Sequence record: MN445185.1
DNA length: 64,000 bases
From: Escherichia phage vB_EcoM_EC001
Reading direction: 5' to 3' (one strand)
The position numbers and the translations under genes are program-made. The notes beneath the pieces are model-generated. The model was not told where the DNA came from. It worked only from the letters and a program-made list of their open reading frames with translations, and searched no databases. Shown here in pieces: positions 16,089-39,046 of this stretch; position 1 is the first letter of the stretch; each line of letters starts with the position of its first letter.

Positions 16089-16101
16089 AAAAAGAAAAGG
16101 T

Positions 16102-18895: not shown

Positions 18896-18906
18896 TGGGG
18901 TCTCCG

Positions 18907-21090: not shown

Positions 21091-21097
21091 GAGACTT

Positions 21098-22505: not shown

Positions 22506-23155
22506 TGCTGATTCCTGAGCCGAGGTTACCCGACAGTATGGTGAGGATTGCGGCTGTTGACCCCGGTACTGCCCATCTTGGGATGGCGGTTATCGACTGG
22601 GAATTTGGCCAACCTCAAGGTGAAGTTGTCTGGGCGGGCACGGCTCATGTTGCGGACCCTACGCACAATGGCTCTTTTGGTGAGTGCGTAGGGAAACGCG
22701 ATGCGCGTTTGGTAGAATTAGAAGAACGCTTTCGTGAGTTTTTAAAACTGGCAAGGCCGACTTTTGTCGCTACCGAAACTCCGTTCATGCGAAGAGCTAA
22801 GCTCTCAGCGTACGAGTCTGGGGTGGAGTTGCAACTGATGTTGCGGCGAACGCTTTGGGACGTGTTTCCCGAAAAATATCTCCATGGGTTTAATCCTATT
22901 ATTGTGAAGTCGTACGTTGGTGTGGAAGCAAAGGGTACAGATAAATCGCATATGCAGCAAGCGGTTACCAAGCTCTACGCTAACCATACCCGGTGCGACT
23001 TATCGGTATTGGATGAACACAGTATCGATGCCGTGGCGGTGGGTAATATCTTCGTCAGGGTCAACTTATTAAACCTAAATAGTCTCCTTCCGCCCAAGGT
23101 TAAAGTTCCTAAAGCTAAGGCTGGTAAGCGGAAAGGAAGACGCCGGAGGAAATAG
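22505..23155 (+). CDS. RuvC-family Holliday junction resolvase homologue with polybasic C-terminal tail
   Basis: manual alignment to E. coli RuvC: IAAVDPGTAHLGMAV vs ILGIDPGSRVTGYGV, ATETPFM vs AIEQVFM, KSHMQQAV vs KSQVQHMV, DEHSIDAVAVG vs ADAADALAIA; tail KAKAGKRKGRRRRK. Confidence 0.7.
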   Translation: MLIPEPRLPDSMVRIAAVDPGTAHLGMAVIDWEFGQPQGEVVWAGTAHVADPTHNGSFGECVGKRDARLVELEERFREFLKLARPTFVATETPFMRRAKLSAYESGVELQLMLRRTLWDVFPEKYLHGFNPIIVKSYVGVEAKGTDKSHMQQAVTKLYANHTRCDLSVLDEHSIDAVAVGNIFVRVNLLNLNSLLPPKVKVPKAKAGKRKGRRRRK

Positions 23156-23827: not shown

Positions 23828-24466
23828 ATGCAATTACAATTTCGTCAACGGTCTGTACTACTACCGTTTAGCGCTATATTAGGTTCGTTTACCAAAATGC
23901 TGTCTGTGGATTTTACTGCAGCTGAGAAAGAAGCGCTGTTATTGGCGGCAGTCGAAGAAGTATTGTGGGAGGCATTTTACGTAGTGCCGTTTCGTAGCTG
24001 CTTAAACGCCCCGTATGTTGAAGGGCAGTTTGTCAGCGCGCTTTCCGCCGCGATTACCAAACGTAAACTAAATGCCATGGCGCATGTCAAAGAGATCACC
24101 GCGCAACGAGGACGGATATTCGCTGCCGTCAGAAATGTGTTAATTAAAGAAGGGTTTCTTGCAGATGCGTTAGGTCCCGAAGTTCCTTGGGAACCAGGCC
24201 ATCCGCCGCGTCAGTTTGACCACGGGTACAAGTTAAATATAATTATGCCACGCGGTAAGCGTGACGTCTCATTGGGGAAATGGTTACAGATAAGTTGGGT
24301 TCGTCCTACTATCGATTGGCAAGAAATGTCGGTCAATCGCTATCTGGAACACCTGGCAAAAACACCGGCACAGTTTCACCGTTCAACAATCCTGCCGCTA
24401 CACATGCTGTTAAAACCGTCCCTGTCATTGGCAGAAGCCAGATACCTGCTTAGTGGAGAGAAGTGA
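23828..24466 (+). CDS. hypothetical protein
   Basis: 212-aa ORF; start may be a downstream in-frame ATG. Confidence 0.5.
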   Translation: MQLQFRQRSVLLPFSAILGSFTKMLSVDFTAAEKEALLLAAVEEVLWEAFYVVPFRSCLNAPYVEGQFVSALSAAITKRKLNAMAHVKEITAQRGRIFAAVRNVLIKEGFLADALGPEVPWEPGHPPRQFDHGYKLNIIMPRGKRDVSLGKWLQISWVRPTIDWQEMSVNRYLEHLAKTPAQFHRSTILPLHMLLKPSLSLAEARYLLSGEK

Positions 24467-24948
24467 TGCTTGTTATTAATGTGGTCGAGGATAAGATTCC
24501 CGCGAATGTTTATCCTGAACTGGTTGAATGGGTGCGCGACTTAAACAGTATCCGCGAGGAGCCTATTAAACTCACGATGTTTGTTGAGGATGATATCGTG
24601 CGTGGAATCATGGCATGGGAACCTGGCCATTTGGTCTATATGGTAGTGCCCGAAGAATCGCGGCGGGGCGGTGTCGGCAGATTTATGCTTAAGTATCTTC
24701 AGCAGAACTCCGATCGTAAACACATCAGCTGTCGTGTTCACCCGACCAACATTCCCGCGCTAGGATTCTTTCACCAACAAGGCTTCCAGATTGACCGATG
24801 GTATATTGCTGCTGACGGCCAACGGTATTTTCGTATGACGAACTACAATGTTATTTCGTCACACACGCCACCGGAGGAAAAGCTTTTAACTCATTACGCT
24901 GAAAGCGTTCCCATTTTTCTCTCGATGGCAGAAGGTCATTTCGTCTAA
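24463..24948 (+). CDS. GNAT-family N-acetyltransferase
   Basis: motif A VPEESRRGGVGRFML and motif B NIPALGFFHQQGF. Confidence 0.65.
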   Translation: MMLVINVVEDKIPANVYPELVEWVRDLNSIREEPIKLTMFVEDDIVRGIMAWEPGHLVYMVVPEESRRGGVGRFMLKYLQQNSDRKHISCRVHPTNIPALGFFHQQGFQIDRWYIAADGQRYFRMTNYNVISSHTPPEEKLLTHYAESVPIFLSMAEGHFV

Positions 24949-24965
24949 ACGAGCGAGAGTGTATA

Positions 24966-25442
24966 ATGATACGTGTTGCTTACGAAACACGAGATACGGA
25001 TGGAACCCGTATAAACGTCATCCGCCGTGTGGAGCTTGTTCCTCAGCATGAACTGAATATTGCAGACAGTTCGCTTAGGGGCACTCCTGTTAAGATTCTG
25101 AATCTTACGAGACGTTCTTTTCATCACAGTAAGACTTCACCAGCAATACGGTCCAGTAAAAGAAAAAGTTATGCCGATTTAAAACATCGGTTGTCCCGGC
25201 ATTTTCGTCGGAGTGCCTGGAAGGCTTTAGTTGAGATTTTGGTTGACGAACACCTTATCCAGAAGTTGGAATGGGAAGAGGTTCTCAAGGAAGCGGGCTA
25301 TCCAACTAAACCTTTCTCTTATCACTGGCATCACTTCAAAAAACAGTTCCATGATACTTTACAGGTATCGCCAAACACTCGCAACATGATTCACCGTTTG
25401 GAGAAAATGGACTGGCTTCTACCCTATCTGGAAGAGGACTAG
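24966..25442 (+). CDS. hypothetical basic protein
   Basis: 158-aa ORF. Confidence 0.5.
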   Translation: MIRVAYETRDTDGTRINVIRRVELVPQHELNIADSSLRGTPVKILNLTRRSFHHSKTSPAIRSSKRKSYADLKHRLSRHFRRSAWKALVEILVDEHLIQKLEWEEVLKEAGYPTKPFSYHWHHFKKQFHDTLQVSPNTRNMIHRLEKMDWLLPYLEED

Positions 25443-25444
25443 AT

Positions 25445-25834
25445 ATGATGCGTGCTGTATTAGCTGTGTTTATAATTTGCGTTACTACGTCAGTATACGC
25501 GTTTACTGTTCAGGACTTCCCGCAATACAAACCAATGTGGGAAACTGACGCACCTGTGAAATTCAGCGACAAAGATGAACCAGTCGTGTCGGTGGAGAAG
25601 GGTGAGTTTGCCGTGGTCAACTACGGACGTTCTGAACTGTGTCCAGGCGGTGGCTTTTATCTCATTAACACAAAGCGTAAGACGTACCAGCCGATAGATG
25701 CCGGTACGTGTTCGCCGAAAGTTAAAGCGACAATTGTCCCGTCAGTACGAACACATCGCAGCGTTAATACCCACCAGTTAACTTTTTGGGTAGGTAAAGA
25801 AATTTCCGCGCGGTATCCTTTGTACGATTACTAA
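25445..25834 (+). CDS. secreted or periplasmic protein with N-terminal signal peptide
   Basis: N-terminus MMRAVLAVFIICVTTSVYA then polar mature region. Confidence 0.55.
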   Translation: MMRAVLAVFIICVTTSVYAFTVQDFPQYKPMWETDAPVKFSDKDEPVVSVEKGEFAVVNYGRSELCPGGGFYLINTKRKTYQPIDAGTCSPKVKATIVPSVRTHRSVNTHQLTFWVGKEISARYPLYDY

Positions 25835-25852
25835 ACACAGCGTATAGGGGCT

Positions 25853-25880
25853 TCGGCCCCTATACTGTTTATTATTTTCC
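25853..25880 (+). terminator. rho-independent terminator (UUCG loop)
   Basis: TATAGGGGC-TTCG-GCCCCTATA then T-rich tract. Confidence 0.8.
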
Positions 25881-25924
25881 TGTGAAGTATTATGACCCCC
25901 TTAATCAAATACCAGGAGCGAGGC

Positions 25925-26542
25925 ATGTCTTTTGTTATTGACTTTAACCACCATCATAGTCAAACCTTGCTCGATTTAGTCAATGCTTTTAATGCTGAAA
26001 CCGTTTATACGCCCCTGACCACAGAACGTATCCGAGTGGAGAGTTATGGTCCACCGGAACCGGACGGTCGTGTAAGTGCTTTGCTGACTAATAAGAGTAA
26101 GCCAGATGACTATGTGGTTGTGCGTTACCGCAAATTGAGCTTAAATGATATAATCACGTTGAAGCCTGAACATCTCACATGGTTTGATTTGTCGAAAGGT
26201 AAACCGGCCGATTTGCGCGTATGGTCTGAACCTGCAATGGCCAGTTTTGAATCGGCGTGTGCAGAACGTGGCATCGTTGTAAGTAAGGCGTGGGAAAACC
26301 CCGCGCAATGCCACGTAGAGTACGACATCCCGACTGATCGATACGTCCTCGTCTATGAATGTGAATCATTTGTTTACGAATCGCGCACACGCATTACGCT
26401 ACCGTACCATATCGGCCAAGACTTAACCAAGACAACGTTGCCTGGTCTGGAATACGACTTGGCTGGTTTCTGGGGGCATAAGCTGTTAGAAGAAGTGACT
26501 ATCACGAAGCTTAACGGTTTTCGTTATCGTGAGTTTGTTTAA
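25925..26542 (+). CDS. hypothetical protein
   Basis: AGGAG 6 nt upstream of ATG 25925; ORF-track start 25892 lacks a ribosome-binding site. Confidence 0.55.
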   Translation: MSFVIDFNHHHSQTLLDLVNAFNAETVYTPLTTERIRVESYGPPEPDGRVSALLTNKSKPDDYVVVRYRKLSLNDIITLKPEHLTWFDLSKGKPADLRVWSEPAMASFESACAERGIVVSKAWENPAQCHVEYDIPTDRYVLVYECESFVYESRTRITLPYHIGQDLTKTTLPGLEYDLAGFWGHKLLEEVTITKLNGFRYREFV

Positions 26543-26549
26543 GACACTA

Positions 26550-26590
26550 CCCTCGCCCGTTTAGCGAGGGTAGGTATTTATTTTTTTCTT
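26550..26590 (+). terminator. rho-independent terminator
   Basis: CCCTCGC...GCGAGGG stem then TATTTATTTTTTT. Confidence 0.8.
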
Positions 26591-26623
26591 ACGAATCGTC
26601 CACTCCGTATAGGAGGTAAGTCC

Positions 26624-27223
26624 ATGAAAAAGATTTATAAAATTGCGGTAATCGGTTCTCGGAAGACCGATGAAGATACCATGTCTGAAATGTACATGCG
26701 ATTGTTACGTGGGTTTAATGCGCTGCACGCCAAAGATTACACGATTCGTTTTTCTTCTGGCGGCTGCTGGTGTGGTCCAGACCAATTGCAATTCCGATTT
26801 GCCCGACAGTGGGCGAATACAATAGACCAAGATACCGGCAAGAAAGTGGCGTGGGATGATGAGTTCATTTGTTACCTACCCGATGAGAAAAAGCTCTGGC
26901 TCAGGAAACAGAATCCCAACGTAGAGTTCCGTGTAATCCCTCAGGATGACCGCTATCGTGAGATAGTAGGTAAGCTTCATCCCGCGCCAGAAAAGCTCCA
27001 GGAGTTCGCCTGGGCGCTTCACGGGCGTAATCTGAATATAATTATGGGCGATGATTTAGCAACGCCTGTAGACGCAGTCTATTACTCTGCGCCTTTAGAT
27101 AAACAAGGTAATCCGACCGGCGGTACTGCAATGGGCGTAAAATACGCTAAGCAGTGTGGTATTCCTTGTTACCACCATGCGCTTGAAGGACATCTGTGGC
27201 TTGAGAGCTTGTGCTTATTATGA
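26624..27223 (+). CDS. SLOG/DprA-like Rossmann-fold protein (tentative)
   Basis: N-terminal AVIGSR and downstream SSGGCWCGPD resemble the GSR ... SGG.G.D pattern of the SLOG superfamily. Confidence 0.35.
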   Translation: MKKIYKIAVIGSRKTDEDTMSEMYMRLLRGFNALHAKDYTIRFSSGGCWCGPDQLQFRFARQWANTIDQDTGKKVAWDDEFICYLPDEKKLWLRKQNPNVEFRVIPQDDRYREIVGKLHPAPEKLQEFAWALHGRNLNIIMGDDLATPVDAVYYSAPLDKQGNPTGGTAMGVKYAKQCGIPCYHHALEGHLWLESLCLL

Positions 27224-27253
27224 CCACGTTGCCTTTAATCAGAGGTCGCTATT

Positions 27254-27526
27254 ATGCAAACAACCGGTTTAGCTCGTCGTTTGTGGGAAGCCTTCTTCCC
27301 CACGCCATCAAAACCCATTAAGAAGGTGACTAGCCTTCGCTTGTTCCCAGGCACCGAGGATGAGTTCTTCGATTACCTGGAACGGCATGGTTTTGATTCG
27401 AAAGTTGCACCGCAGGAAAATGACCCAATTCAGACGGTCTACACTACACCGGATACGGGTGAAATATTTGCTTTGTGTGTTCGCTGGCCACATCGTAATT
27501 ATTACTACACTTTGACGCAGATATAA
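27254..27526 (+). CDS. hypothetical small protein
   Basis: 90-aa ORF. Confidence 0.5.
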   Translation: MQTTGLARRLWEAFFPTPSKPIKKVTSLRLFPGTEDEFFDYLERHGFDSKVAPQENDPIQTVYTTPDTGEIFALCVRWPHRNYYYTLTQI

Positions 27527-27536
27527 GGAGCAGGGG

Positions 27537-28670
27537 ATGTCGACGCTCGATTTAGATTTAGAAGTCCTGACTGACGACTACGATCGCCTGGTCGCACTCG
27601 AAGGTCTGGGAGTTAAGCCCGACTTCCCTGCGGTTTGCGCGATTCGTCAGCGTTGGTGCTTAACCGACGACGGTGAAGATATGTTGGTTGCTCGTGAATC
27701 GCGTGAAGCGATGGAGCGTGCTCAGTTTATGACTGATACCGACCCGCGAGCTGGTATCCATCGCGCAGCAGGGCGCATTACTGCGAAGGCTGTTAAAGGC
27801 GCTGGAAAGTTAGTGGGTGCTGGACTAGGTGCAACCGCAAAGGGTGCGGGTAAACTTTCGAAAAAGCTCGCATTACGCTTTTACGATTTCGCGGAAGCGC
27901 TAGCGAAAGAACAAGCCGACCGTTTGAAAGAAATAACTTCGAAAGCTGCTTTCATGGAACGTAAGCTCAATAAGCTTAAAACGCGAATGTCGCTGCTAGA
28001 TGAGCACAAAACACTCGCTGCAGTTGACGTTCACACTAGCAGCTGGACGTCTAAAATTTGTTTTGAAGATCGACCCGATTTTGAAGCGTGTGTTCGGTTT
28101 TCTAAACAAACAAATGCGTACGAAGGCGTCGTGCAAAAGTACACGGTTTACACACGCACTGCTCTGAAGAAAAGCAAAGCATTCGAAGGGCCGGGCTTAA
28201 AACAAATCAGCAAGTCCACAAACTGGGCAGTTAAGCGTGCCGCTGGATTGCTTGGCATCATCGATCCCTTTAAAAAGGTGGAAGCTTTTCCTGTTCCTGG
28301 AAATATCGTTGTGGTTGAGCACCATAGTGGTAAGATCAGTTGGGCAATTGCGCGTGACGGCGATTATGGTGAAACCATTAAATCGCTGGATATGCATCAG
28401 TGTGGGAAAGCAATAGAGGCTGTGGAAGCACTTATCAAATCTATTGCTGCGCGCGGAACAAAGAACCGTGTTGTAGGCTACACTGGTATCTACGAAGAAG
28501 TGGAAGCGATGAAGTCCGAGCTTAAGAACCTGGAAGGGGATGAGCTGAAAGAAGCCACTTTGCGCTACCGCAATGCAATGGCGATGGAAGACGCTTTTAC
28601 CACGGCATTGGTACGTGTGGCGGAGGGTCTAATGGAATGGACGAAGCAATCGCTGGCCGAGGTGAACTGA
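27537..28670 (+). CDS. hypothetical protein with Gly/Ala/Lys-rich repeat
   Basis: GGGGATG start context; internal KGAGKL repeats. Confidence 0.55.
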   Translation: MSTLDLDLEVLTDDYDRLVALEGLGVKPDFPAVCAIRQRWCLTDDGEDMLVARESREAMERAQFMTDTDPRAGIHRAAGRITAKAVKGAGKLVGAGLGATAKGAGKLSKKLALRFYDFAEALAKEQADRLKEITSKAAFMERKLNKLKTRMSLLDEHKTLAAVDVHTSSWTSKICFEDRPDFEACVRFSKQTNAYEGVVQKYTVYTRTALKKSKAFEGPGLKQISKSTNWAVKRAAGLLGIIDPFKKVEAFPVPGNIVVVEHHSGKISWAIARDGDYGETIKSLDMHQCGKAIEAVEALIKSIAARGTKNRVVGYTGIYEEVEAMKSELKNLEGDELKEATLRYRNAMAMEDAFTTALVRVAEGLMEWTKQSLAEVN

Positions 28671-29131
28671 TGAAGATTATTACCATAGTGGGGCCAGACA
28701 CGGCTAACGGCAGGAAATATTCCACAGATATCCTCGCGCTTTATAACGAGCTGGACAAAAGCGAAATAGAAAGCTATCGAAAAGAGACGGGTATTAATGT
28801 CCGTTTTACGCCGGCTAAATCGTTAGCCGAGCGCTTCCGGGGTCGTTTACTGGCGGTCGTGGACGACGGTGTCTTGTATGGCTTTGCGCAATACCGCACG
28901 ATGACTGAAGAGGGTGTGACGATGATGTCGGTATCCTCACTGGTCGTTAGCAGCAGCGCACGTGGTAAAGGTTACGGCACCGCGTTGATGGATGCGGTAA
29001 AGAAATCCGCAACGGAAAAAGGGTGTACAGTTGTTCACCTGTCCGTGAACGCCGGTAACGCTGCCGCGAAGTCGCTCTACGACAAAGCTGGCTTTAAGGT
29101 AGGTGCTTACCAGATGTATTGGAGGGTGTGA
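28670..29131 (+). CDS. GNAT-family N-acetyltransferase (tandem paralogue 1)
   Basis: motif A SSARGKGYGTALMDAV, motif B NAGNAAAKSLYDKAGF; N-terminus MKIITIVGPDTANGRKY parallels the next gene. Confidence 0.7.
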   Translation: MKIITIVGPDTANGRKYSTDILALYNELDKSEIESYRKETGINVRFTPAKSLAERFRGRLLAVVDDGVLYGFAQYRTMTEEGVTMMSVSSLVVSSSARGKGYGTALMDAVKKSATEKGCTVVHLSVNAGNAAAKSLYDKAGFKVGAYQMYWRV

Positions 29132-29595
29132 TGAAAATTGTTTTTGTCACCAAGCCCAACTCTCCGTATGGAAAGAAATACTACGCGGACTTGTTAGGAC
29201 TACACAACAAGTTATACGACGATCAGAAAATAAAACTTGCCGACTTAAACGGTCGTGAAGGGTTTAATCAAATCTCAAAACTGGAGGAGGTTTGGGGTGA
29301 AGGTACGCTGTGCGCTTGCGCCGTTGATGACCGTGGTGTGGCTGTTGGTTTCATCACCTTTGGCTACACCAAAAAGGGACAACGTTTCCTCTGGGTATAT
29401 AACTTTTTTGTAGATGAATCGGTTCGTTCACAAGGCGTTGGCCATGAACTGATCGAAGCCGTAGAGAACTATGGCAAATCAAAAGGCTGCGCATGGATGC
29501 AGCTTAACGTGCTCGGTAATAACGACCGTGCTATTGCGTTTTATGAACGTTTCGGATTCCGAACTGAATACCAGGATATGGTAAAGGAGCTTTAA
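29131..29595 (+). CDS. GNAT-family N-acetyltransferase (tandem paralogue 2)
   Basis: GGAGGG ribosome-binding site; motif A VRSQGVGHELIEAV, motif B NDRAIAFYERFGF; N-terminus MKIVFVTKPNSPYGKKY. Confidence 0.7.
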   Translation: MKIVFVTKPNSPYGKKYYADLLGLHNKLYDDQKIKLADLNGREGFNQISKLEEVWGEGTLCACAVDDRGVAVGFITFGYTKKGQRFLWVYNFFVDESVRSQGVGHELIEAVENYGKSKGCAWMQLNVLGNNDRAIAFYERFGFRTEYQDMVKEL

Positions 29596-29596
29596 C

Positions 29597-30205
29597 ATGG
29601 TGGCTGTCCGCAGCGTGCCACATCAGACTGGCTCGCGATATACTTTTTGTGTAAAGCGTTTCGGGGCAAGAAATCGCCCTGGTTGGAAGGTGGTACGTGC
29701 GATGGGACAGTTCTGGCAATTACCACCTGGCACGTTAAAATATTTTTCAGTAGACAGAATAACCCGGTTCTTAAACGCGGCTGACCCAAGTCAACGCTCC
29801 AGTTTTATGGCAGGGATCGTTTGTCGTCCCGATGGGAAAACACGCGATGCAACCACTCGTGGAATCTACTGGACAGGACAGAACGCGTTTCAGGTTGGCT
29901 TACCTTGCCTGAAGTGTGAAGTGACACCGTTTAATGGTCCCTACGCCGATGCGCACTTCACCGGTATCTTTGTGTCGTTCCCAGACGACCCGTCTTTAAA
30001 CTACTTTTTATCAGTGGACAAAGACGTCAGTATTGATACCTTTTACAAATACTTGTTGTTTTACAGCCGGTATATCCGCGTGACTCCTGTGCATGAAGAT
30101 TGGTATTATAAAAATCCCTTGAACTATGGGAGGGACAGGAGACTAGAAGGATGTTCTATCGAGAGCTTCAACTCTGTACCGCAGCGCTCCATGGCGCTAA
30201 TGTGA
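29597..30205 (+). CDS. hypothetical protein
   Basis: AAGGAG ribosome-binding site; 202 aa. Confidence 0.55.
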   Translation: MVAVRSVPHQTGSRYTFCVKRFGARNRPGWKVVRAMGQFWQLPPGTLKYFSVDRITRFLNAADPSQRSSFMAGIVCRPDGKTRDATTRGIYWTGQNAFQVGLPCLKCEVTPFNGPYADAHFTGIFVSFPDDPSLNYFLSVDKDVSIDTFYKYLLFYSRYIRVTPVHEDWYYKNPLNYGRDRRLEGCSIESFNSVPQRSMALM

Positions 30206-30522
30206 GCAAGAACGGGGACCTGGAAGACGTCGCGCAAGCCTTACGGGCTGTGTCGGAGGTTGACCAGGTCGACATCGACGCTAAGTATTTAGGCGGCGGT
30301 GTAAAGCGTATTCAGTTGACCGTGCGAGCCAAACATGGCAGCTGCTCGTTACATTTTCGAGTCAGTGCGGATTATTTCCTGGTACTGCGCTCCACATTCA
30401 GTCACGATGGTCGGACTCACCGGGTTCGGTGGATGCACGACATTACTAAATTTGGCTACCCGCTTGCAGAACAACGTAAAGTCGTACATGACTTTATGGC
30501 TGCAGTCGTTGCGGGGTTTTAA
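30151..30522 (+). CDS. hypothetical protein
   Basis: 123-aa ORF overlapping upstream gene by about 55 nt. Confidence 0.4.
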   Translation: MFYRELQLCTAALHGANVSKNGDLEDVAQALRAVSEVDQVDIDAKYLGGGVKRIQLTVRAKHGSCSLHFRVSADYFLVLRSTFSHDGRTHRVRWMHDITKFGYPLAEQRKVVHDFMAAVVAGF

Positions 30523-30534
30523 GGGGAGACTGTG

Positions 30535-31131
30535 ATGTCTGAGATGATTCTCGATTCGCTGTTTTTGATTACGGTTGCAAACATCAATAAAAACGGCAAT
30601 CTTCCAGAATACGTAGACATAAGTCGTCATGGCTTTAAGCGTCGTTATCAAATCGGTAAGGTACTAGAGATTGCCTGCTTAGTAACGAACATGCGTAGAC
30701 CGGTGGAAGGCTGTAGCGTTAAACATGCACAGATGATACTCGGGCGTGCTATTTCAGAAGTACGTCGTAAGCGTCGTCGTGCACCGTATCGCTTTTATCC
30801 TAACTCCACCAAACAGGTGGTCGGTGAGGGGGAAGGTGTGGTTGATTTGCGTGAGGCCAGTTGTAATGTAGGCGGTATTGCACGTGACTGGTTAATGAGC
30901 ATTATCAGTAAGCATCCACGTACACCTACGCCGCAAGAAGGACAGGCGGTACTCGCACTTATGCGTAAGACCCATTTGGTGATTACTGATACACCAAACC
31001 AGGCAGCACGAATGCAGCACTATTTGGCATGTCGTGGCTTCACCACACTTGCAGTACCTTCTGAATACACAGCTGATATTAAACTTCCGCCAGTCCCAGA
31101 TTGGTCTGAACCGACAGTTGATCATCAGTGA
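30535..31131 (+). CDS. hypothetical protein
   Basis: AAGGGGA ribosome-binding site; ATG at 30535. Confidence 0.55.
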   Translation: MSEMILDSLFLITVANINKNGNLPEYVDISRHGFKRRYQIGKVLEIACLVTNMRRPVEGCSVKHAQMILGRAISEVRRKRRRAPYRFYPNSTKQVVGEGEGVVDLREASCNVGGIARDWLMSIISKHPRTPTPQEGQAVLALMRKTHLVITDTPNQAARMQHYLACRGFTTLAVPSEYTADIKLPPVPDWSEPTVDHQ

Positions 31132-31136
31132 GTTAT

Positions 31137-31175
31137 ACCCACTCCTTCGGGAGTGGGTCGACTCTATTTTTTTTG
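31137..31175 (+). terminator. rho-independent terminator (UUCG loop)
   Basis: ACCCACTCC-TTCG-GGAGTGGGT then T-run. Confidence 0.85.
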
Positions 31176-31200
31176 GATAGATGTTATCTTAGGGAGACGT
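31176..31200 (+). promoter_or_regulatory. conserved promoter-like element, variant B
   Basis: GGATAGATGTTATCTTAGGGAGACG immediately after terminator. Confidence 0.5.
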
Positions 31201-31291
31201 GCAAAAATTACGTTTCATCCTTAGCATATGCTAGAAGCCGTTGTGAGTCGGTTAAAACTCACCAACTTAAACTTAAAAGCGAGTAAACAAA

Positions 31292-32056
31292 ATGTCAAAA
31301 CTCAATAAAGCAGCAACCAAAGAATGGCTTTCCGTACCTACCGCAGATGGTCAGTATCGCTACGTATTCACGTATGACGAAAATGACCTGACGGCAAAAG
31401 GTATTCCGCACATGTTAAGTCACAAACTGATTAACAGCGTGACCGGTGCCACCTTAGTAGGTTCCGGCGGAAGGACAATCTTTTGTGCCCCCAGTTGGGA
31501 TCAAACTGAACTGACCAAGAAAATGCTCGGTGAACTCCGGGCGGTTTCCGCACGTCTGTTCTTTAAGCTGATTGCCAGAAAACCGGCGCTATGGGATGCA
31601 TGGTCTCAACACAATCTCGAGGCATTGCGTGGGGAGTGTCTGAATTACGTATTGGTCGAAGAAGTGATTGATAACTTCTTCGCTAACGTGATGAAAACCG
31701 AACGACTGCGTAAGCCGAACACCGACGGTTATTCGTTTGTCTCCGTTAAGAGCAGCGAACTGATTCGGGGTGAGTTTGCAGGGCATGTCCTTTCGGTAAC
31801 TCGGAACCTGAGTTTCTTTGGCCAGCCTTTCAGTGAGCCAGTTGTTCAGGTAACTTATGATTTCCGTTTACCGTTTACTGTTCGGAATGAGTTTGACCCA
31901 GGTCAAGTTTCGTTGAAGTTTTTATATCCTCTCCAGTCATGGCCGTTATTGAAGAGGTTCTTAGCTGAGCCCCGTGTAGCTGCGGTGCTGCAAGCGTGGA
32001 TTGATTCATGGCCAGAAGGCATTGAGGAAAAATCGAAAACGCGAGTTGACTTCTAA
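31292..32056 (+). CDS. hypothetical protein
   Basis: 254-aa ORF. Confidence 0.55.
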   Translation: MSKLNKAATKEWLSVPTADGQYRYVFTYDENDLTAKGIPHMLSHKLINSVTGATLVGSGGRTIFCAPSWDQTELTKKMLGELRAVSARLFFKLIARKPALWDAWSQHNLEALRGECLNYVLVEEVIDNFFANVMKTERLRKPNTDGYSFVSVKSSELIRGEFAGHVLSVTRNLSFFGQPFSEPVVQVTYDFRLPFTVRNEFDPGQVSLKFLYPLQSWPLLKRFLAEPRVAAVLQAWIDSWPEGIEEKSKTRVDF

Positions 32057-32063
32057 GTAAGCT

Positions 32064-32098
32064 AGGCACTCTTCGGAGTGCCTATTATTTTTTTTCTT
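32064..32098 (+). terminator. rho-independent terminator (UUCG loop)
   Basis: AGGCACTC-TTCG-GAGTGCCT then TATTATTTTTTTT. Confidence 0.85.
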
Positions 32099-32159
32099 TA
32101 CGTATGCTCGCTATATTGTGACACCACTACAATTAATTAAACTTTTGGGGAAGAATAAA

Positions 32160-32783
32160 ATGTTAAACTCAGTGGCGCTGGATGGTCCAGATTTTTCTGG
32201 CAAATCAACACTCGCGAAAATGATTCAAGCGATGTTGCGCTCCGCTGGCGTTAATGTCATCATCGTCAATCACCCGACGAATACCACTGAAGCCGGTATT
32301 AGTGCACGTTCTCTGGTTATCCAGCACGCTTCTAACGAACGCATTGCTAAAGCGATGTGTCTGGATTTCCAATACACGATGGATTTCGTTGTACCAGAGC
32401 ACGATGTCGTTATTTTTGACCGTTTTTGTCAATCGACTATTGTCTACCAGGGCGTCGATGGTAAAGGGGAAGTTTTCCGTTCGCGGGTATTAGACCACAT
32501 TAACGCACCAAAGCTTTACGTGGCAACCGATGTATCTTACGAAACCGCCACAGAACGCTTTAAGAAGCGCGTAGAGGCACAAGGTAAGAACTGGGATGAT
32601 GAGGTACTGACAGCGAAGTATCTGCGCTCACAGACCGATTGGGACGCCTTACGCGACCATTACCGTTTTGCTTTCCACATCACCACAGATGGCGGCGATA
32701 AGTTCCCGCTGATGCGTGTTACGGCTGACGACGATATAGCGTTACAAGCCGCGCGTATCGTTGAACGTATTCTGGCAGGTTAG
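32160..32783 (+). CDS. tmk: thymidylate (dTMP) kinase-like nucleotide kinase
   Basis: P-loop LDGPDFSGKST; IFDRFCQSTIVYQG matches Tmk motif IGDRHDLSTQAYQG; start taken at ATG 32160 rather than upstream GTG. Confidence 0.65.
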   Translation: MLNSVALDGPDFSGKSTLAKMIQAMLRSAGVNVIIVNHPTNTTEAGISARSLVIQHASNERIAKAMCLDFQYTMDFVVPEHDVVIFDRFCQSTIVYQGVDGKGEVFRSRVLDHINAPKLYVATDVSYETATERFKKRVEAQGKNWDDEVLTAKYLRSQTDWDALRDHYRFAFHITTDGGDKFPLMRVTADDDIALQAARIVERILAG

Positions 32784-32789
32784 TTGTAC

Positions 32790-32828
32790 CCCTCTTACCT
32801 TCGGGTAAGAGGGTATTGTCTTTTTTTA
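32790..32828 (+). terminator. rho-independent terminator (UUCG loop)
   Basis: CCCCTCTTACC-TTCG-GGTAAGAGGG then T-run; same stem as 5775. Confidence 0.85.
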
Positions 32829-32870
32829 CAGATCAGAACAGTCTTATGCTTTTTGCTTCCACTCCACTAA

Positions 32871-32899
32871 ATTTCAGATATATATTACTTAGGTGAGAG
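32871..32899 (+). promoter_or_regulatory. conserved promoter-like element, variant A
   Basis: ATTTCAGATATATATTACTTAGGTGAGAG; conserved downstream AATCGACTATTAATCTAAAAGGAGTATT. Confidence 0.55.
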
Positions 32900-32947
32900 T
32901 TACTACTAAACTCTCTAATCGACTATTAATCTAAAAGGAGTATTCTA

Positions 32948-33313
32948 ATGCGTTTTAAACATCAAACCGTTGTGTTGGCAAAGAAAGCGTTTTTGGTTCG
33001 TCTTTCTTACATTATTACTCGTGTCACTGCGAAGGACGTTACGCAGAAAGACATTGCGTTATTAGTAGGCTGCTCACCGTCACAAATATCTGCGATTAAA
33101 AATGAACGTGAGAAGGCCGTGACTATCGAAACATTGATGCGGGTTGCTGATACACTGCGCCTGAATTACGAAATCGTCTACCGTTCCATCAACGGCAAAT
33201 GCCGCCATAGCTTTAAAATTGAATCATGCATCGATTACATGAACAACTGTCCTATCCGGGTACGAGAAACAGGACTTAAAGTCATGGCACGTAAACCTTC
33301 TGCAGTAATGTAG
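32948..33313 (+). CDS. helix-turn-helix (XRE/Cro-like) transcriptional regulator
   Basis: QKDIALLVGCSPSQISAIKNE ... TIETLMRVADTL matches helix-turn-helix pattern; first gene after promoter-like element. Confidence 0.5.
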   Translation: MRFKHQTVVLAKKAFLVRLSYIITRVTAKDVTQKDIALLVGCSPSQISAIKNEREKAVTIETLMRVADTLRLNYEIVYRSINGKCRHSFKIESCIDYMNNCPIRVRETGLKVMARKPSAVM

Positions 33314-33324
33314 GGAGCAAACGT

Positions 33325-33711
33325 ATGAATTGGTTTGTAAATGGTATCACCCGTCGCGTGATGACGGAAGAGGATGATCGATGTAAACATCTTAAAGTGG
33401 GCTCTATAGCCCCGCGCTATACGGCAGAGTGCGACCCATGGGGCCGCGAAACGTATTACATGTGCGAAGACTGCTGGGAAAAACTGCAGGCTGCAATTGC
33501 GGCGGAAGAAGTGGTCTGCGACGACTGCAAAGGTACCTTCCCGAAACGGGATACCGTTGAGTGGAAATGGTACGACTTTGACCCCAGTCAAGGGGATAAA
33601 GAACTCTGTATCTGTAATAACTGTGTGTCGTTACCGGTACATTTAAACCGTGTAGAGAATGACCGTCGGGCATTTGAACACGACTTTCCAGAAGCAACTT
33701 TCTGGGATTAA
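33325..33711 (+). CDS. Cys-rich zinc-finger protein
   Basis: multiple CxxC pairs (CEDCW, CDDCK, CICNNC). Confidence 0.55.
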   Translation: MNWFVNGITRRVMTEEDDRCKHLKVGSIAPRYTAECDPWGRETYYMCEDCWEKLQAAIAAEEVVCDDCKGTFPKRDTVEWKWYDFDPSQGDKELCICNNCVSLPVHLNRVENDRRAFEHDFPEATFWD

Positions 33712-34243
33712 CTAGTGTAAACCTTAAGGAGTATATCATGGCGAAGGCCCCTAAAACTGTAGCAAAAGATTCAACGGCAAGCACCGCGACTAAATCTGCA
33801 AAAACGTCTACTACAGAATTTCCACGTTCACCTACCATTCCTAAACCGGATGTAATTGTACCAATCAGTGAACGTCTGAAAACGATTCACATCGAACGTG
33901 AATTTCCGATTGACCTTGGTCAGGAAATCGTTGCGGTTAATCTTGGTAGTGATGTCCGCTTTACTATCTACAAGGGATTAACTAGTGTAAACCTTAAGGA
34001 GTATATCATGGCGAAGGCCCCTAAAACTGTAGCAAAAGATTCAACGGCAAGCACCGCGACTAAATCTGCAAAAACGTCTACTACAGAATTTCCACGTTCA
34101 CCTACCATTCCTAAACCGGATGTAATTGTACCAATCAGTGAACGTCTGAAAACGATTCACATCGAACGTGAATTTCCGATTGACCTTGGTCAGGAAATCG
34201 TTGCGGTTAATCTTGGTAGTGATGTCCGCTTTACTATCTACAA
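33704..34243 (+). repeat. perfect tandem direct duplication, 2 x 270 bp (33704-33973 and 33974-34243)
   Basis: both copies read base-by-base as identical; unit includes ribosome-binding site AAGGAG, ATG and first 79 codons. Confidence 0.9.
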
Positions 34244-34664
34244 AGGCGCGCATCTGAACAACATGGTGCTAACCCGCGGTGATGAAGTTATCGGTCTGTC
34301 TCGTTACGACACGCAAATCGAAAACATCTATCCGGTGTTTGCAGTAGCGATGTTGCGTTTGTTCATGCAGGATAAAGCCGACCTTTGTGGTCAGCTTGCG
34401 GGTATGGCGGATCGTGTTGGTCATATTCTGCCGACGCTGGTGAAACTGTACCCAGTTACGATTGACGTGGCGTTTACTACTGTAGACAACAACCACGGTT
34501 ATATCGTGCTGACCAAAGACGGTAAAGTTATCGCTGGCAATCTGACTGATAACGAAGTGCAGAAACATATGGACAAATTTGCGTTCATGGTGAATCGCTT
34601 AGCGCACGTCAGTGTCAAACATTCCGAAACTTGGACGGCGCTTGCCTCCAAACCGGAACTGTAA
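33738..34664 (+). CDS. hypothetical protein carrying in-frame duplicated N-terminal region (alternative start at second ATG, 34008, gives the unduplicated protein)
   Basis: 308-aa ORF; residues 1-79 repeated at 91-169, joined by translated former leader LTSVNLKEYI. Confidence 0.6.
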   Translation: MAKAPKTVAKDSTASTATKSAKTSTTEFPRSPTIPKPDVIVPISERLKTIHIEREFPIDLGQEIVAVNLGSDVRFTIYKGLTSVNLKEYIMAKAPKTVAKDSTASTATKSAKTSTTEFPRSPTIPKPDVIVPISERLKTIHIEREFPIDLGQEIVAVNLGSDVRFTIYKGAHLNNMVLTRGDEVIGLSRYDTQIENIYPVFAVAMLRLFMQDKADLCGQLAGMADRVGHILPTLVKLYPVTIDVAFTTVDNNHGYIVLTKDGKVIAGNLTDNEVQKHMDKFAFMVNRLAHVSVKHSETWTALASKPEL

Positions 34665-34667
34665 TCA

Positions 34668-34705
34668 TTAAGGGGTCTTCGGACCCCTTAATTTTTTGTC
34701 TTTTT
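34668..34705 (+). terminator. rho-independent terminator (UUCG loop)
   Basis: TTAAGGGGTC-TTCG-GACCCCTTAA then T-run. Confidence 0.85.
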
Positions 34706-34753
34706 ACGCATTATCCTCATGTTGTGACAGCAATACCTTTTGAGGGCATTACA

Positions 34754-35752
34754 ATGAAAACTGTGGCTAAATTGTTTCGCACCAGCATCCGCACTGCCGA
34801 GTTCCGAAATAACGTCGGTACCGATACTGTACGAGCACGCCGCCTAAAAGAGTTTCTAAAGGACGAGACTTATTCTGTTTACGTGGTGAAGAATAAAGAA
34901 ACCTGGGAGGGTTATTTAGTGGCCACCTATCGACACGGTGACCCTACACTAACCTGTCACTATTTTGAGGAGTTTGTACCTGGGGCGTTCGATAAAGTTG
35001 GTTTGGCCCTTGTGCTCGACCATACCGGATTCGAATATATGTCGTGCCCAGCACCTACTGACGATGTTGAACAAAAACTGGTCGAAAAAGGGTTTGTTCT
35101 TTCAGATATCGTTTGGGCATGTCATTCCAAACTGTTTGACAAAGTAATAACCGCACCGGAAATCAAGATTATTTCTGGTGATGCATACGCAGAACTTACC
35201 AAGGATGATAAAGACGTTATCCTGAATTTGATTAGCGGTGCAATTTGCGAAGAGCTAGAATACGATATGCGTGGCTACTATACGCACATTGGTCCGTTAG
35301 CAGAAACAGTAATAGCAAGAATTCAGCACGCTAATGTGGAGACTGCAATTTGGCGAGACGGTCATGATATCGTCGGTATTGCCCAGATGCGCTTGGTTAC
35401 ACCAGGCGTCGTTGAACTTTCTGGTTTAACCGTTGCACCCACGCACCGTAAACGTGGCATTGGTCGCCGGCTAATGGGCGCGCTATTCGATTTCGCACAA
35501 CGTCATTCCGACCAAGTCTATATTGAAACAGCTGCTGATAATAATCCAGCAAATCACCTGTATGGCAACATCTTACGTTGCAAGCAGGTACTGCGTACAC
35601 TAACGTTGAAACGCGATCCTGAACTTATTAGCTGGAAACGGGTGAATGGAAACCGCGCCGATCGTGTGCTGAAAGAAGAACCTAGCTTTCCGGTGGAGAC
35701 TACAACCAGGCTGACTATTAGTGATATGTTTCAATCTGGCATGAGAGGATGA
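34754..35752 (+). CDS. two-domain protein: N-terminal unknown domain fused to C-terminal GNAT acetyltransferase
   Basis: ATG 34754 with GAGGG upstream; C-terminal motif A VAPTHRKRGIGRRLMGALFDFA and motif B NNPANHLYGNI. Confidence 0.6.
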   Translation: MKTVAKLFRTSIRTAEFRNNVGTDTVRARRLKEFLKDETYSVYVVKNKETWEGYLVATYRHGDPTLTCHYFEEFVPGAFDKVGLALVLDHTGFEYMSCPAPTDDVEQKLVEKGFVLSDIVWACHSKLFDKVITAPEIKIISGDAYAELTKDDKDVILNLISGAICEELEYDMRGYYTHIGPLAETVIARIQHANVETAIWRDGHDIVGIAQMRLVTPGVVELSGLTVAPTHRKRGIGRRLMGALFDFAQRHSDQVYIETAADNNPANHLYGNILRCKQVLRTLTLKRDPELISWKRVNGNRADRVLKEEPSFPVETTTRLTISDMFQSGMRG

Positions 35753-35758
35753 TAACGG

Positions 35759-36577
35759 GTGATAAGACCAATTTTAAAATGGATGGGTGGTAAGAGTCGT
35801 GTACTGCCCGAGCTGCTACAGGTGTTTCCGGATGCTGAGTATTTCGTTGAACCTTTTGTGGGCGCAGGGTCAGTGTTTTTAAACACTAAATACCCGAACT
35901 ATATTCTCGGCGACACGAACCCGGACTTAATCGAGTTACTGACCATGGCGCGCGATCGTCCGGAAGCGCTGATTCTGGAAGCAAAGGCGCTCTTTGCAAA
36001 TGGGACGGACCGCGGTCTGTACATGAAACGGCGTGAGGAATTTAACAGCGAGACAACCACGGGGAAACCTAATCTCCAGCGCGCCGCGATGTTCCTGTAT
36101 CTTACACGTCATGGTTACAATGGTTTGTGCAGATACAATCAGTCGGGTGGGTTTAACGTGCCCTATGGTCAACACCCGAACGGTGTCTATTTCCCTGAAG
36201 AGGAAATTCTGGCGTGGGCAAAACGTTGTTCGGAAACCAACGTCGAGCTGCTCTGCGCGGACTTCCGCGATATCCTAAATAAATGCCCATCTAACGCTGT
36301 GATATACGCTGACCCGCCCTATATCCCTCTTTCGGATACGGCTAAACACGCGCAGTATCACAGCAAAGAATTTTCACAAGCTGACCACCGCGAGTTAGCG
36401 AAACTTTTAAAACAACAAGCTGCCGATGGCAATAAGGTCGTTCTGTCAAACGCAGATACGTTACTCACACGCGATATTTATTACGGCTTTACTTGGCGCG
36501 AAGTTCAGGTAGGTCGATATATGTCTGCGGATGCGAATAAGCGTAAAGCGGTGACGGAGCTAATCGGCACCTTATAA
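35759..36577 (+). CDS. dam: DNA adenine methyltransferase (Dam family, expected GATC specificity)
   Basis: ILKWMGGK vs E. coli Dam FLKWAGGK; FVEPFVGAGSVFLN identical block; catalytic DPPY; LYLTRHGYNGLCRYN vs LFLYLNRYGYNGLCRYN. Confidence 0.85.
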   Translation: MIRPILKWMGGKSRVLPELLQVFPDAEYFVEPFVGAGSVFLNTKYPNYILGDTNPDLIELLTMARDRPEALILEAKALFANGTDRGLYMKRREEFNSETTTGKPNLQRAAMFLYLTRHGYNGLCRYNQSGGFNVPYGQHPNGVYFPEEEILAWAKRCSETNVELLCADFRDILNKCPSNAVIYADPPYIPLSDTAKHAQYHSKEFSQADHRELAKLLKQQAADGNKVVLSNADTLLTRDIYYGFTWREVQVGRYMSADANKRKAVTELIGTL

Positions 36578-36586
36578 GGTACCAAC

Positions 36587-37390
36587 ATGCAACTATTTAA
36601 TCTATACGGTATGGACAAAAATGACCTGACCGTAGAGTTTAGTGGTCGATTGACCACCTTGGGGCAACTCCGTGAACGGATTCAAGATTTGCGACCCGTC
36701 GCAGACCAAGAAGACGATCATTGGTTAGTGTTGAGCAATAGCGGTCGTGCGCAAATGTATTTTCGTGGATGTCGTTCAGGTATTGTTTACTACATCTACG
36801 AGTTGCACGTGCTTTCCGAGCCCCTGTTCCACGAGTGGAAGCGTTTAACGCGACTCCTGGAAGTGCAGATGCTCGATATTACCTGCTTTCCGCATGACAC
36901 TGAGCACGCAGCACTATACCAGCGCCTGGGGTTCGAAGCTGTAACGAAGCGTGTGGAGATTACTGTCAGTCCGAAATACGGCTTTACGTCAGACCCATCA
37001 GTTGTCCCGTTGGAGACATTGTCATTAGAACAAACCCAGGATGTTTGCTATCTGATGCGACCTACGCTAAAAGACGCAGGAACGCGTGAGATGTTGGGTG
37101 AATTAGCAAATGGTTTTGTCTCTGCGTTCGTGGGGTTGCACGGCCAGAAACCGTTTTCATTAATGCTTTATAAGGAATTCCCGAAGTGCATCATTACTGA
37201 GCAATTCTGCTGCCAAACTTTTGACCCGGTTGCTTACTCGGTAGAGTTTCTAAAACACTACCACGCTATTTTGCATTTGGCGGGACAGAAAGGTAAGAAG
37301 GTCAACATGGGTGTTGCGATAGAGCACGAGTTTCCTTCTATCGAAGGGTTAGAGTATCGTGTAATCACGCACCACTACACCCTTGCGTAA
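36587..37390 (+). CDS. hypothetical protein (weak GNAT-like motif)
   Basis: 267-aa ORF; HAALYQRLGFEAV resembles GNAT motif B only. Confidence 0.5.
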   Translation: MQLFNLYGMDKNDLTVEFSGRLTTLGQLRERIQDLRPVADQEDDHWLVLSNSGRAQMYFRGCRSGIVYYIYELHVLSEPLFHEWKRLTRLLEVQMLDITCFPHDTEHAALYQRLGFEAVTKRVEITVSPKYGFTSDPSVVPLETLSLEQTQDVCYLMRPTLKDAGTREMLGELANGFVSAFVGLHGQKPFSLMLYKEFPKCIITEQFCCQTFDPVAYSVEFLKHYHAILHLAGQKGKKVNMGVAIEHEFPSIEGLEYRVITHHYTLA

Positions 37391-37399
37391 GGAGAGAAT

Positions 37400-38212
37400 A
37401 TGCTGAGAGTTATCGAACGCACGGAGAGGATTCTGGACCGAACGTGGTTGGAAGACCGTAAGGCGTTATCGTTGTTAAATGATATCGATCCTTCCACGTT
37501 ACAAGATGAACGTCGTCTTTACTACCGAATCTTTGAAGTGTTCAGTCGGGACACGGTTGAGCCTGACGCGATCGTGCTCTGTCTGGACCACGGATACATG
37601 TTAGAAGTTATCAATATGGTTCGTGCTTTAGACGCCCAGTTAACCTCGCTTGCGGATTCCTTACTTCGTGCAGCTGGGCGTAACTACGCGATGCATTTTA
37701 CTCGTTCTGAAGGGGACGAATATGCACGCATGGGCTTTTGTTGCGAAACGATAAACTACCGCAAAATTAATACATTGGTGCCTAGCCACGATGAGGATTT
37801 CTGTGGGGATGTCAGTTCGTTGTTCGATAGTAAGAAAGCGTTCTTGGATTGGGTTAGAATGCTTTACGGTAAAAGCTCTATCTACTCAACGCTCGTTACG
37901 GGCGGGAGGCTGATGTCGTGGCGAAACGCTGATAGCTACAAGTTGACAGTGCTTTCGCACCGTGGGCATCGCTGGGTTATCGGTGGATGGTTTACCGCAG
38001 AAGGGGTGGTTACTCTAAGCCGAGAGGAGTTCGGGCTGTTGATGCACTGTATCCAGTCTGAATTACCAGTGGGGGATGAACTGATTTACACCTACCACCA
38101 ATATACTGGGGGGCCTGCCGCAATGTGGTTATTAGAAAACGGTTGGCTACCCGAAAGTTATGTCTACGGACGTGCCCTGAAAACTACTAATGGAGAAAAT
38201 AATGCAAATTAA
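37400..38212 (+). CDS. hypothetical protein
   Basis: GGAGAG ribosome-binding site; 270 aa. Confidence 0.55.
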   Translation: MLRVIERTERILDRTWLEDRKALSLLNDIDPSTLQDERRLYYRIFEVFSRDTVEPDAIVLCLDHGYMLEVINMVRALDAQLTSLADSLLRAAGRNYAMHFTRSEGDEYARMGFCCETINYRKINTLVPSHDEDFCGDVSSLFDSKKAFLDWVRMLYGKSSIYSTLVTGGRLMSWRNADSYKLTVLSHRGHRWVIGGWFTAEGVVTLSREEFGLLMHCIQSELPVGDELIYTYHQYTGGPAAMWLLENGWLPESYVYGRALKTTNGENNAN

Positions 38213-38480: not shown

Positions 38481-38520
38481 TTCGCCATTGTATGACCCTT
38501 AAATACCGTTGAGGTTAACT

Positions 38521-39008: not shown

Positions 39009-39046
39009 ACCTCCTTGCCCATGGGTAAGGAGGTCCCTTTTTATTT
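39009..39046 (+). terminator. rho-independent terminator
   Basis: ACCTCCTT...AAGGAGGT stem then CCCTTTTTATTT. Confidence 0.75.

Follow-up and report, generated by a model that had tools for sequence, protein, structure and literature searches.

What are the GNAT-fold genes that crowd around a Dam methylase gene in Escherichia phage vB_EcoM_EC001, and on what might their products act? The window analysed here is a stretch of 64,000 nucleotides from sequence record MN445185.1, and the genes in question lie on its plus strand between positions 24463 and 38212. Our preferred reading, to which we assign a probability of roughly 0.6, is that they belong to a conserved block encoding four separate acetyl-CoA-dependent GNAT N-acyltransferases, together with further GNAT-fold domains that lack the cofactor motif.

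The window derives from a Seoulvirus, i.e., an SPN3US-like, nucleus-forming jumbo phage. A megablast search of positions 24000-38500 against phage genomes showed that Seoulvirus genomes match this region over its full length at 95-97% identity, the closest being Escherichia phage vB_EcoM_Lh1B (97.0% identity, 100% coverage), and that Salmonella phage SPN3US matches at 97.1% identity over 91% of the query. SPN3US has been described as a nucleus-forming jumbo phage (PMC13282480), and the genes are named below after their SPN3US counterparts. In GenBank records of near-identical phages, four of them are already annotated as acetyltransferases and one as Dam.

The preliminary description of this DNA had listed four clear GNAT genes, and this part of it was borne out. 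An open reading frame (ORF) was found for each, and all four translations exceed the Pfam gathering score. The matches to Acetyltransf_1 are strong in the extra GNAT (the one with no SPN3US counterpart; E = 1.9e-17), the gp95-like protein (E = 9.3e-18), and the gp104-like protein (E = 2.1e-14, residues 194-270), and weak in the gp88-like protein (26.2 bits vs. a cut-off of 20.7), which also exceeds the cut-off for Acetyltransf_10 with 24.4 bits. GNAT enzymes bind the cofactor pyrophosphate through a Q/R-x-x-G-x-G/A motif between strand b4 and helix a3. A motif scan detected this motif exactly once per GNAT and at the expected place (residues 67, 98, 99, and 232), as RRGGVG in the gp88-like protein, RGKGYG in the extra GNAT, RSQGVG in the gp95-like protein, and RKRGIG in the C-domain of the gp104-like protein. 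Judged from their sequences, the four are GNATs that have diverged from one another, with GNAT core and cofactor motif intact. None of the four reached any NCBIfam model, every score being several-fold below the curated cut-off, indicating that none is an equivalog of a characterised bacterial enzyme. At least one further acetyltransferase is annotated in SPN3US (NC_027402, 172536-173024), with a macro-domain protein (174459-174959) about 1.4 kb downstream; the GNATs of this phage are thus not confined to the block.

The same description had regarded the region as an accessory island, an interpretation that is ruled out by synteny, base composition, and the absence of tRNA and mobility genes. 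The order GNAT (gp88), DprA-like gene, internal head protein and GNAT (gp95), Tmk and helix-turn-helix genes, tandem GNAT (gp104), Dam, gp106, and gp107, with other genes interspersed, is common to four genera, Seoulvirus, Machinavirus (Caitlin), Wellingtonvirus (Wellington, pEa_SNUABM_11), and Erskinevirus (phiEaH2), save one gene: in phiEaH2, Dam and the two downstream genes are present and the tandem GNAT is absent. The same order was found in metagenomic relatives in which the tandem GNAT shares as little as 28-36% identity. The GC content of the block (0.45-0.49) equals that of the rest of the window, no tRNA genes were found, and a domain scan of the other ORFs of the block revealed no integrase, transposase, or other mobility domain. 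The only variable gene of the block is the extra GNAT gene. The block is therefore a set of conserved, co-linear, non-structural genes of SPN3US-like jumbo phages, not an island.

The gp95-like protein is the one for which biochemical results on close relatives are available. In a study of candidate phage spermidine N-acetyltransferases expressed in E. coli lacking speG, N-acetylspermidine was made by YP_007237670 (phiEaH2) and YP_009292176 (Caitlin) (Li et al., PMC9992855). The SPN3US protein YP_009153389 gave no product above background in the same assay, which was a single in vivo assay for which the accessible text mentions no expression check (PMC9992855). YP_009153389 is 100% identical to the gp95-like protein of the window, and the two active enzymes are its syntenic orthologues, located directly after the internal head protein gene and sharing its length and cofactor motif. 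In tblastn searches, the gp95-like protein was 100% identical to its counterpart in SPN3US, 72% in phiEaH2, and 53% in Caitlin.

Alignment of the orthologues pointed to two positions that separate the active enzymes from the protein that was negative in the assay. The phiEaH2 and Caitlin enzymes and the Wellingtonvirus orthologues carry His90 and Asp129, whereas the Seoulvirus proteins carry Tyr90 and Gly129. The first substitution (H90Y, LWVHNFF to LWVYNFF) lies in strand b4 and the second (D129G) changes VLDNN to VLGNN; both distinguish the four Seoulvirus proteins compared from all four aligned Erwinia-phage orthologues, including the two active enzymes. A fifth Seoulvirus-type sequence, on a divergent metagenomic contig, has Ser90 and Gly129 and likewise lacks both the His and the Asp. 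Human SSAT2 ranked in the top five when the gp95-like protein was compared with PDB sequences (E = 5e-6), and a HMMER alignment to it places Tyr90 opposite the Glu of 'YLED' and Gly129 opposite the Asp of 'VLDWN'. The former Glu corresponds to SSAT1 Glu92, the proposed general base. The gp95-like protein shares with SSAT1/SSAT2 and SpeG/PaiA the cofactor motif and the Tyr of helix a4, but has Tyr and Gly where SSAT-type enzymes have an acidic residue in b4 and another after b5. Since H90Y and D129G fall on this conserved acidic pair, they are plausible causes of the negative spermidine assay and, on the alignment, plausible candidates for a lost or changed spermidine specificity. The gp95-like protein scored far below the cut-off of the curated PaiA model (23.6 bits vs. 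250), and no SpeG-type model was among the NCBIfam matches listed. We infer that it descends from a polyamine acetyltransferase whose specificity was changed or lost in Seoulvirus.

The extra GNAT and the gp95-like protein had been called tandem paralogues, and their homology was confirmed by BLASTP (34% identity over 149 residues, E = 4e-19; 30% in the multiple alignment) and by a shared N-terminal signature, MKI..(10)..G..Y....L.L.N.L, that lies outside the generic GNAT core. The extra gene, whose start overlaps the stop codon of the internal head protein gene, is absent from SPN3US. A tblastn search found it at 100% identity in three phage records only (Lh1B, JN03, and 1252), the other matches, all below 60% identity, being the gp95 orthologue in phages of the clade. 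Versions 85% and 76% identical occur on metagenomic contigs of the ~240-kb type, in the same slot between the internal head protein and gp95 genes. On the more divergent of these contigs the extra copy is 76% and the adjoining gp95 gene 73% identical, about equal divergence that fits vertical co-inheritance. In a neighbour-joining tree without support values, the extra copies grouped as a separate clade that branched outside the gp95 orthologues of all four genera. Taking these sequence comparisons together, we read the extra GNAT as an old paralogue lost by most lineages.

Other origins of this gene were considered and rejected. A recent duplication was rejected on the 30-34% identity of the pair and the separate clade of the extra copies in the unsupported tree. 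A recent bacterial transfer was rejected on the finding that the gene has no relatives outside ~240-kb phage-type contigs in a search limited by its word index, and a role as the true spermidine acetyltransferase orthologue was rejected on the finding that the active Erwinia enzymes are orthologues of the gp95-like gene instead. The extra GNAT has Ser and Ala at the positions aligned with residues 90 and 129, and so is no obvious replacement for the gp95-like protein. The sequence TGATGAARAT, in which stop and start codons overlap, is present at both junctions of the extra gene and at the single junction of SPN3US, suggesting that recombination between the short repeats can add or remove one whole gene.

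The gp88-like protein is identical to PDB 7DQG_A, deposited as a 'putative acetyltransferase' with no functional name, save for two substitutions in 161 residues (E = 1e-108). A search of the available literature found no paper on PDB 7DQG. The protein belongs to phrog_7861 (E = 3e-78), and its family is represented in 67 phage records, with Cronobacter phage CR5 and numerous Erwinia jumbo phages among them. In the annotation of relatives, the start corresponds to the ATG at 24466. The best sub-threshold matches among PDB sequences and NCBIfam models were YjaB-type, RimI-type, and archaeal or eukaryotic N-terminal acetyltransferases.

The gp104-like protein had been described as a fusion with a C-terminal GNAT domain. 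The C-terminal part is indeed a GNAT; the N-terminal part, according to AlphaFold2 and Foldseek, is a second, degenerate GNAT domain, which makes the protein a tandem GNAT. The AlphaFold2 model, built from an 11-sequence family alignment, has a predicted local distance difference test score (pLDDT) of 82.8 and a predicted template modelling score (pTM) of 0.74. It shows the order b1-a1-a2-b2-b3-b4-a3-b5-a4-b6 twice (residues 1-128 and 137-286), followed by a tail predicted to be disordered (residues 297-332). The cofactor motif is confined to the C-domain; the N-domain has no acetyl-CoA motif and carries instead a family-conserved LDHTG motif. In a Foldseek search of the PDB, tandem GNATs ranked first, i.e., VipF (E = 3e-13), 2WPW, glucosamine N-acetyltransferase, MAB_4324, and MshD. 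Like the gp104-like protein, VipF of Legionella, MshD, ORF14 of Streptomyces clavuligerus (2WPW), and MAB_4324 have two GNAT domains in a chain of about 300 residues, with the cofactor motif in only one of them, and their matches (E = 1e-13 to 1e-10) span both domains, but sequence identity is 12-16% and the LDHTG motif is peculiar to the gp104-like family. In the MshD/VipF architecture, one domain catalyses and the other helps to form the substrate site. On the model, the gp104-like protein is a tandem GNAT in which only the C-domain has kept the cofactor motif.

This family is small. A full HMMER scan of 1.84 billion representative proteins yielded only eight full-length clusters (at 50% identity), and every such cluster whose source was examined came from the same phage clade; all other matches were restricted to residues ~195-272. 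The best sub-threshold matches of the C-domain were RimI, Naa30, and streptothricin-type enzymes. Local mosaicism was also noted here: the gp104-like protein is 99.1% identical to that of SPN3US and 92.2% to that of Lh1B, though the region overall is closest to Lh1B (97%).

As stated earlier, Dam directly follows this gene, its start lying 6 nt past the gp104-like end, and each examined locus with a tandem GNAT has Dam immediately after it. Dam, an N6-adenine DNA methyltransferase, matches the full PF02086 model of Pfam (E = 3.6e-54) and carries a DPPY motif within 'YADPPYIP'. The next two genes, gp106-like and gp107-like, had been proposed as weaker candidates with GNAT motifs. The motif did not stand: no Pfam match at E <= 1, no NCBIfam match, and no acetyl-CoA motif was found in either protein, and both belong to PHROG families of unknown function (phrog_9941 and phrog_13677). 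A GNAT-like fold, by contrast, appeared in a structural model resembling the tandem GNAT. The two proteins were modelled as one AlphaFold2 chain with a 25-residue Gly/Ser linker, orthologues being paired by phage, which gave a pLDDT of 73 (mostly 70-90 in the gp106-like half, lower in the gp107-like half) and a pTM of 0.43. The GNAT order of strands and helices appears twice per protein, and the residue numbers of b4, a3, b5, a4, and b6 nearly coincide with those in the gp104-like model.

Foldseek searches with the joined model returned the same tandem-GNAT structures from the PDB (best E = 1.6e-9; the matching half is not reported by Foldseek). In BFVD, its own orthologues were followed by the gp104 orthologue of Erwinia phage Kwan (E = 2.9e-15) and by phage 'GCN5-related' proteins, giant-virus N-myristoyltransferases, and a FemAB protein. 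Proof from sequence profiles was sought and dismissed: hhalign aligned the gp106 and gp104 families over 204 collinear columns, a weak match (E = 0.0016, probability 16%), and gave the gp107 family only insignificant matches, at equivalent positions, no probability exceeding 17%. Based on the model, a tandem-GNAT fold that lacks an acetyl-CoA site is very probable for gp106-like and probable for gp107-like; gp106-like would then be a probable pseudo-enzyme or a user of another donor. Erwinia-phage proteins of ~214 residues, such as A0A1B2IE03 (Kwan, 215 aa) and A0A1B2IDM8 (Huxley, 214 aa), also match the tandem-GNAT-like model (Foldseek E = 3e-7 to 1e-5) and may be further GNAT-like proteins of these phages; BLAST assigned no window gene to them.

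A generic scan for strong plus-strand intergenic hairpins detected sites at 23737, 25842, 26547, 32063, 32790, 34667, and 39009. Each has a stem of 9-11 bp and a T-rich tail, most have a TTCG-type tetraloop, and 27 terminator-like sites were counted vs. 18.7 +/- 3.9 in shuffled sequence. If these hairpins are terminators, the GNAT genes would fall into three putative transcription units. Sigma-70-like promoters were not enriched (20 found vs. 23.7 expected), in a scan unsuited to the phage's own RNA polymerases. The features are collected in Table 1.

Table 1. Genes, domains, hairpins, and putative transcription units of the GNAT-containing block (positions in the window).
Feature	Position	Strand	Remarks
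Putative unit	23828-25834	+	contains gp88-like
gp88 (SPN3US_0088) orthologue	24463-24948	+	single-domain GNAT
Putative unit	26624-32056	+	contains internal head protein and tandem pair
gp94 orthologue	27537-28670	+	phiKZ-type internal head protein
Extra GNAT	28670-29131	+	single-domain GNAT; no SPN3US counterpart
gp95 (YP_009153389) orthologue	29131-29595	+	single-domain GNAT
Terminator-like hairpin	34667-34692	+	11-bp stem, TTCG loop, T-rich tail; consensus match; proposed 5' boundary of 34754-39003 unit
Putative unit	34754-39003	+	tandem GNAT, Dam, gp106-like, gp107-like, two small genes
gp104 orthologue	34754-35752	+	332 aa; tandem GNAT
gp104-like N-domain	34754-35137	+	residues 1-128; degenerate GNAT (model, family alignment, motif scan)
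gp104-like C-domain	35162-35611	+	residues 137-286; apparently catalytic GNAT (Pfam, model, Foldseek)
gp105 orthologue	35759-36577	+	D12-class Dam, orphan
gp106-like	36587-37390	+	267 aa; two GNAT-like domains in model
gp107-like	37400-38212	+	270 aa; two GNAT-like domains in model, lower confidence
Terminator-like hairpin	39009-39034	+	11-bp stem, T-rich tail; consensus match; proposed 3' boundary of 34754-39003 unit

According to our preferred reading, the GNAT enzymes would act independently, from the three hairpin-bounded units, their substrates in the infected cell being small amines (polyamines), host or phage proteins, or both. The gp95-like protein would represent a former polyamine acetyltransferase, with H90Y and D129G as candidate causes of its changed or lost specificity, and the gp88-like protein and the gp104-like C-domain most resemble protein N-acetyltransferases of the RimI, Naa, and YjaB types, with sub-threshold scores only. 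The gp106-like and gp107-like proteins would be paralogues of the tandem GNAT that are non-catalytic or do not use acetyl-CoA and that are expressed together with the tandem GNAT and Dam, and the extra GNAT an old paralogue gained or lost as an exact gene unit between its junction repeats. The main texts of the virion proteomics papers contain no mention of gp88, gp95, gp104, gp106, or gp107.

Several points weigh against this reading. The substrates of the four GNATs of this phage are proposals, all matches to functional families being far below the curated cut-offs of NCBIfam. The roles of positions 90 and 129 rest on an alignment and on the role proposed for Glu92 in SSAT catalysis, the transcription units come from a generic hairpin scan instead of data on the phage's own RNA polymerases, and the fold of gp106-like and gp107-like depends on a single AlphaFold2 model in which the two were artificially joined, with a shallow, 11-row alignment and weak profile support. 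In addition, the only direct assay of an identical protein, that of YP_009153389, was negative (PMC9992855).

The alternative that survives best is that the GNATs acetylate host proteins, redirecting the cell or disabling its immunity, as the preliminary description had suggested. This explanation, which overlaps with the preferred reading, seems possible, with considerable doubt. Precedents exist among single-domain phage GNATs used against the host or its defences, such as Rac of phiKMV, the anti-CRISPR AcrVA5, and Mom of phage Mu, whose targets are the RNA polymerase alpha subunit, Cas12a, and DNA adenine, respectively. The sub-threshold resemblance of the gp88-like protein and the gp104-like C-domain to protein N-acetyltransferases (RimI, YjaB, Naa20/30) points the same way, as does the top structural match of the tandem GNAT, since VipF is an acetyltransferase effector of Legionella. 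A comparative-genomics review predicted a Rac-like action for jumbo-phage GNATs (PMC7824862), and the authors of the spermidine study speculated that lowered spermidine impairs the fidelity of CRISPR and restriction (PMC9992855). However, no specific sequence similarity to Rac, AcrVA5, or Mom was detected, Rac and AcrVA5 were not among the PDB sequence matches, and no counterpart of their targets is indicated here. SPN3US-type phages also bring RNA polymerases of their own and form a nucleus by which DNA-targeting defences are already kept out (PMC13282480), and the genes constitute a conserved core of the clade rather than variable anti-defence cargo.

Attention was also given to the neighbourhood of Dam, where the tandem GNAT, Dam, and the two motif-less proteins might constitute a single operon for attaching an acyl or aminoacyl group to nucleic acid. 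Mom of phage Mu, a GNAT that uses Gly-tRNA to modify adenine, provides a precedent (PMC13219725). The order of tandem GNAT, Dam, and ~260-aa protein(s) is kept at 28-36% identity, with stop and start codons sometimes overlapping, the unit is bounded by hairpins, and the Foldseek lists include the aminoacyl-tRNA-dependent transferases of tandem-GNAT fold FemX, MprF, and Sba18/Sbb17. But the Fem/MprF matches rank below ordinary acetyl-CoA-dependent tandem GNATs, and no similarity to Mom was found. The phiEaH2 genome, with Dam and the two downstream genes and no tandem GNAT, indicates that Dam is independent of the tandem GNAT, and since the order is conserved along the whole region, adjacency alone says little. 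Such a module appears improbable. The same holds for its more specific form, in which Dam would be set among three paralogous tandem-GNAT-fold proteins, one having an intact acetyl-CoA site and the two motif-less ones serving as substrate adaptors or using another donor such as aminoacyl-tRNA, like the Fem enzymes and Mom, with nucleic acid or a nucleus-associated protein as the target.

The remaining two options, antibiotic-modifying enzymes and tRNA-acetylating toxins, had been named in the preliminary description and find little in their favour. Detoxification or resistance of the aminoglycoside, streptothricin, or phosphinothricin/tabtoxin type was considered mainly for the extra GNAT, whose best PDB matches are PA4866, the tabtoxin resistance protein, and AAC(3)-I (E = 1e-6 to 1e-3), and for which NCBIfam lists ArsN1, AAC, and Sat models. 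These scores are 5- to 20-fold below the curated cut-offs (the best, for AAC(3)-I, is 30.3 bits vs. 200), the matches span only the generic cofactor-binding core, and all of the nearest relatives are genes from phages of this clade, making this role very unlikely. Toxins of the TacT, AtaT, ItaT, or KacT type, whether as toxin-antitoxin pairs or as translation-shutoff factors, can hardly be maintained: three proteins fit in size (about 155-160 aa) and GNAT fold but in nothing else, no antitoxin-type domain (ribbon-helix-helix, DUF1778) occurs in any neighbouring ORF, no such toxin was among the PDB sequence matches of the four GNATs (E <= 0.01 to 1), the genes are conserved and syntenic in lytic phages, and the accessible part of the report mentions no toxicity for SPN3US gp95 expressed in E. 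coli (PMC9992855).

For the study of nucleus-forming jumbo phages, SPN3US is used as a genetic model; functions are known for only a minority of its roughly 260 genes. The block described here holds about nine GNAT-fold domains, of which only four look catalytic. It includes a polyamine acetyltransferase that appears to have been inactivated or re-targeted, two substitutions being candidates for the cause, and a second, old GNAT paralogue that few isolates have retained. In broader terms the significance is modest: GNATs are common in jumbo phages, the annotation of these genes as acetyltransferases already existed, and no new mechanism is indicated. What is new is the recognition of gp104 as a tandem GNAT, of gp106 and gp107 as GNAT-like proteins without the cofactor motif, and of the extra GNAT as a putative old paralogue, and the two candidate inactivating substitutions of gp95. 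An SPN3US-type phage offers a tractable system for the study of these GNATs.

Several observations were made on neighbouring genes. The internal head protein matches phrog_2497, 'internal head protein' (E = 6e-88), and bears the same name in RefSeq; its match to the Pfam family phiKZ_IP (E = 4e-4) is below the cut-off. Two ORFs without a Pfam match at E <= 0.01 are named in annotations of relatives, i.e., 22505-23155 as a putative RuvC-type junction endonuclease in phage Wellington, and 26624-27223 as DprA-like in RefSeq. Several SPFM-series records (LR5359xx) match the block only as many short pieces (e.g., 40 pieces at 99% identity covering 17% of the query), which points to assemblies with many frameshifts or scrambling and not to true divergence.

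A family of ~250-aa proteins without known domain (31292-32056 in the window) differs in copy number among related phages, with one copy in the window and in SPN3US, two in phiEaH2, three in Caitlin, and about four in pEa_SNUABM_11 (BLASTP E = 1e-4 to 1e-18). In the relatives' loci L003, L006, and L004, the copies lie at 14100-16449, 18167-21305, and 14093-15632, respectively. Finally, we also identified a perfect tandem duplication at 33704-34243 (270 bp x 2.0, 100% identical) in the gp103-like gene, spanning its ribosome-binding site, start codon, and first ~79 codons. The ORF reads through the duplication to 308 aa, vs. 218 aa in SPN3US, and contains a second in-frame ribosome-binding site and ATG; the long form is also present in the annotation of Lh1B.

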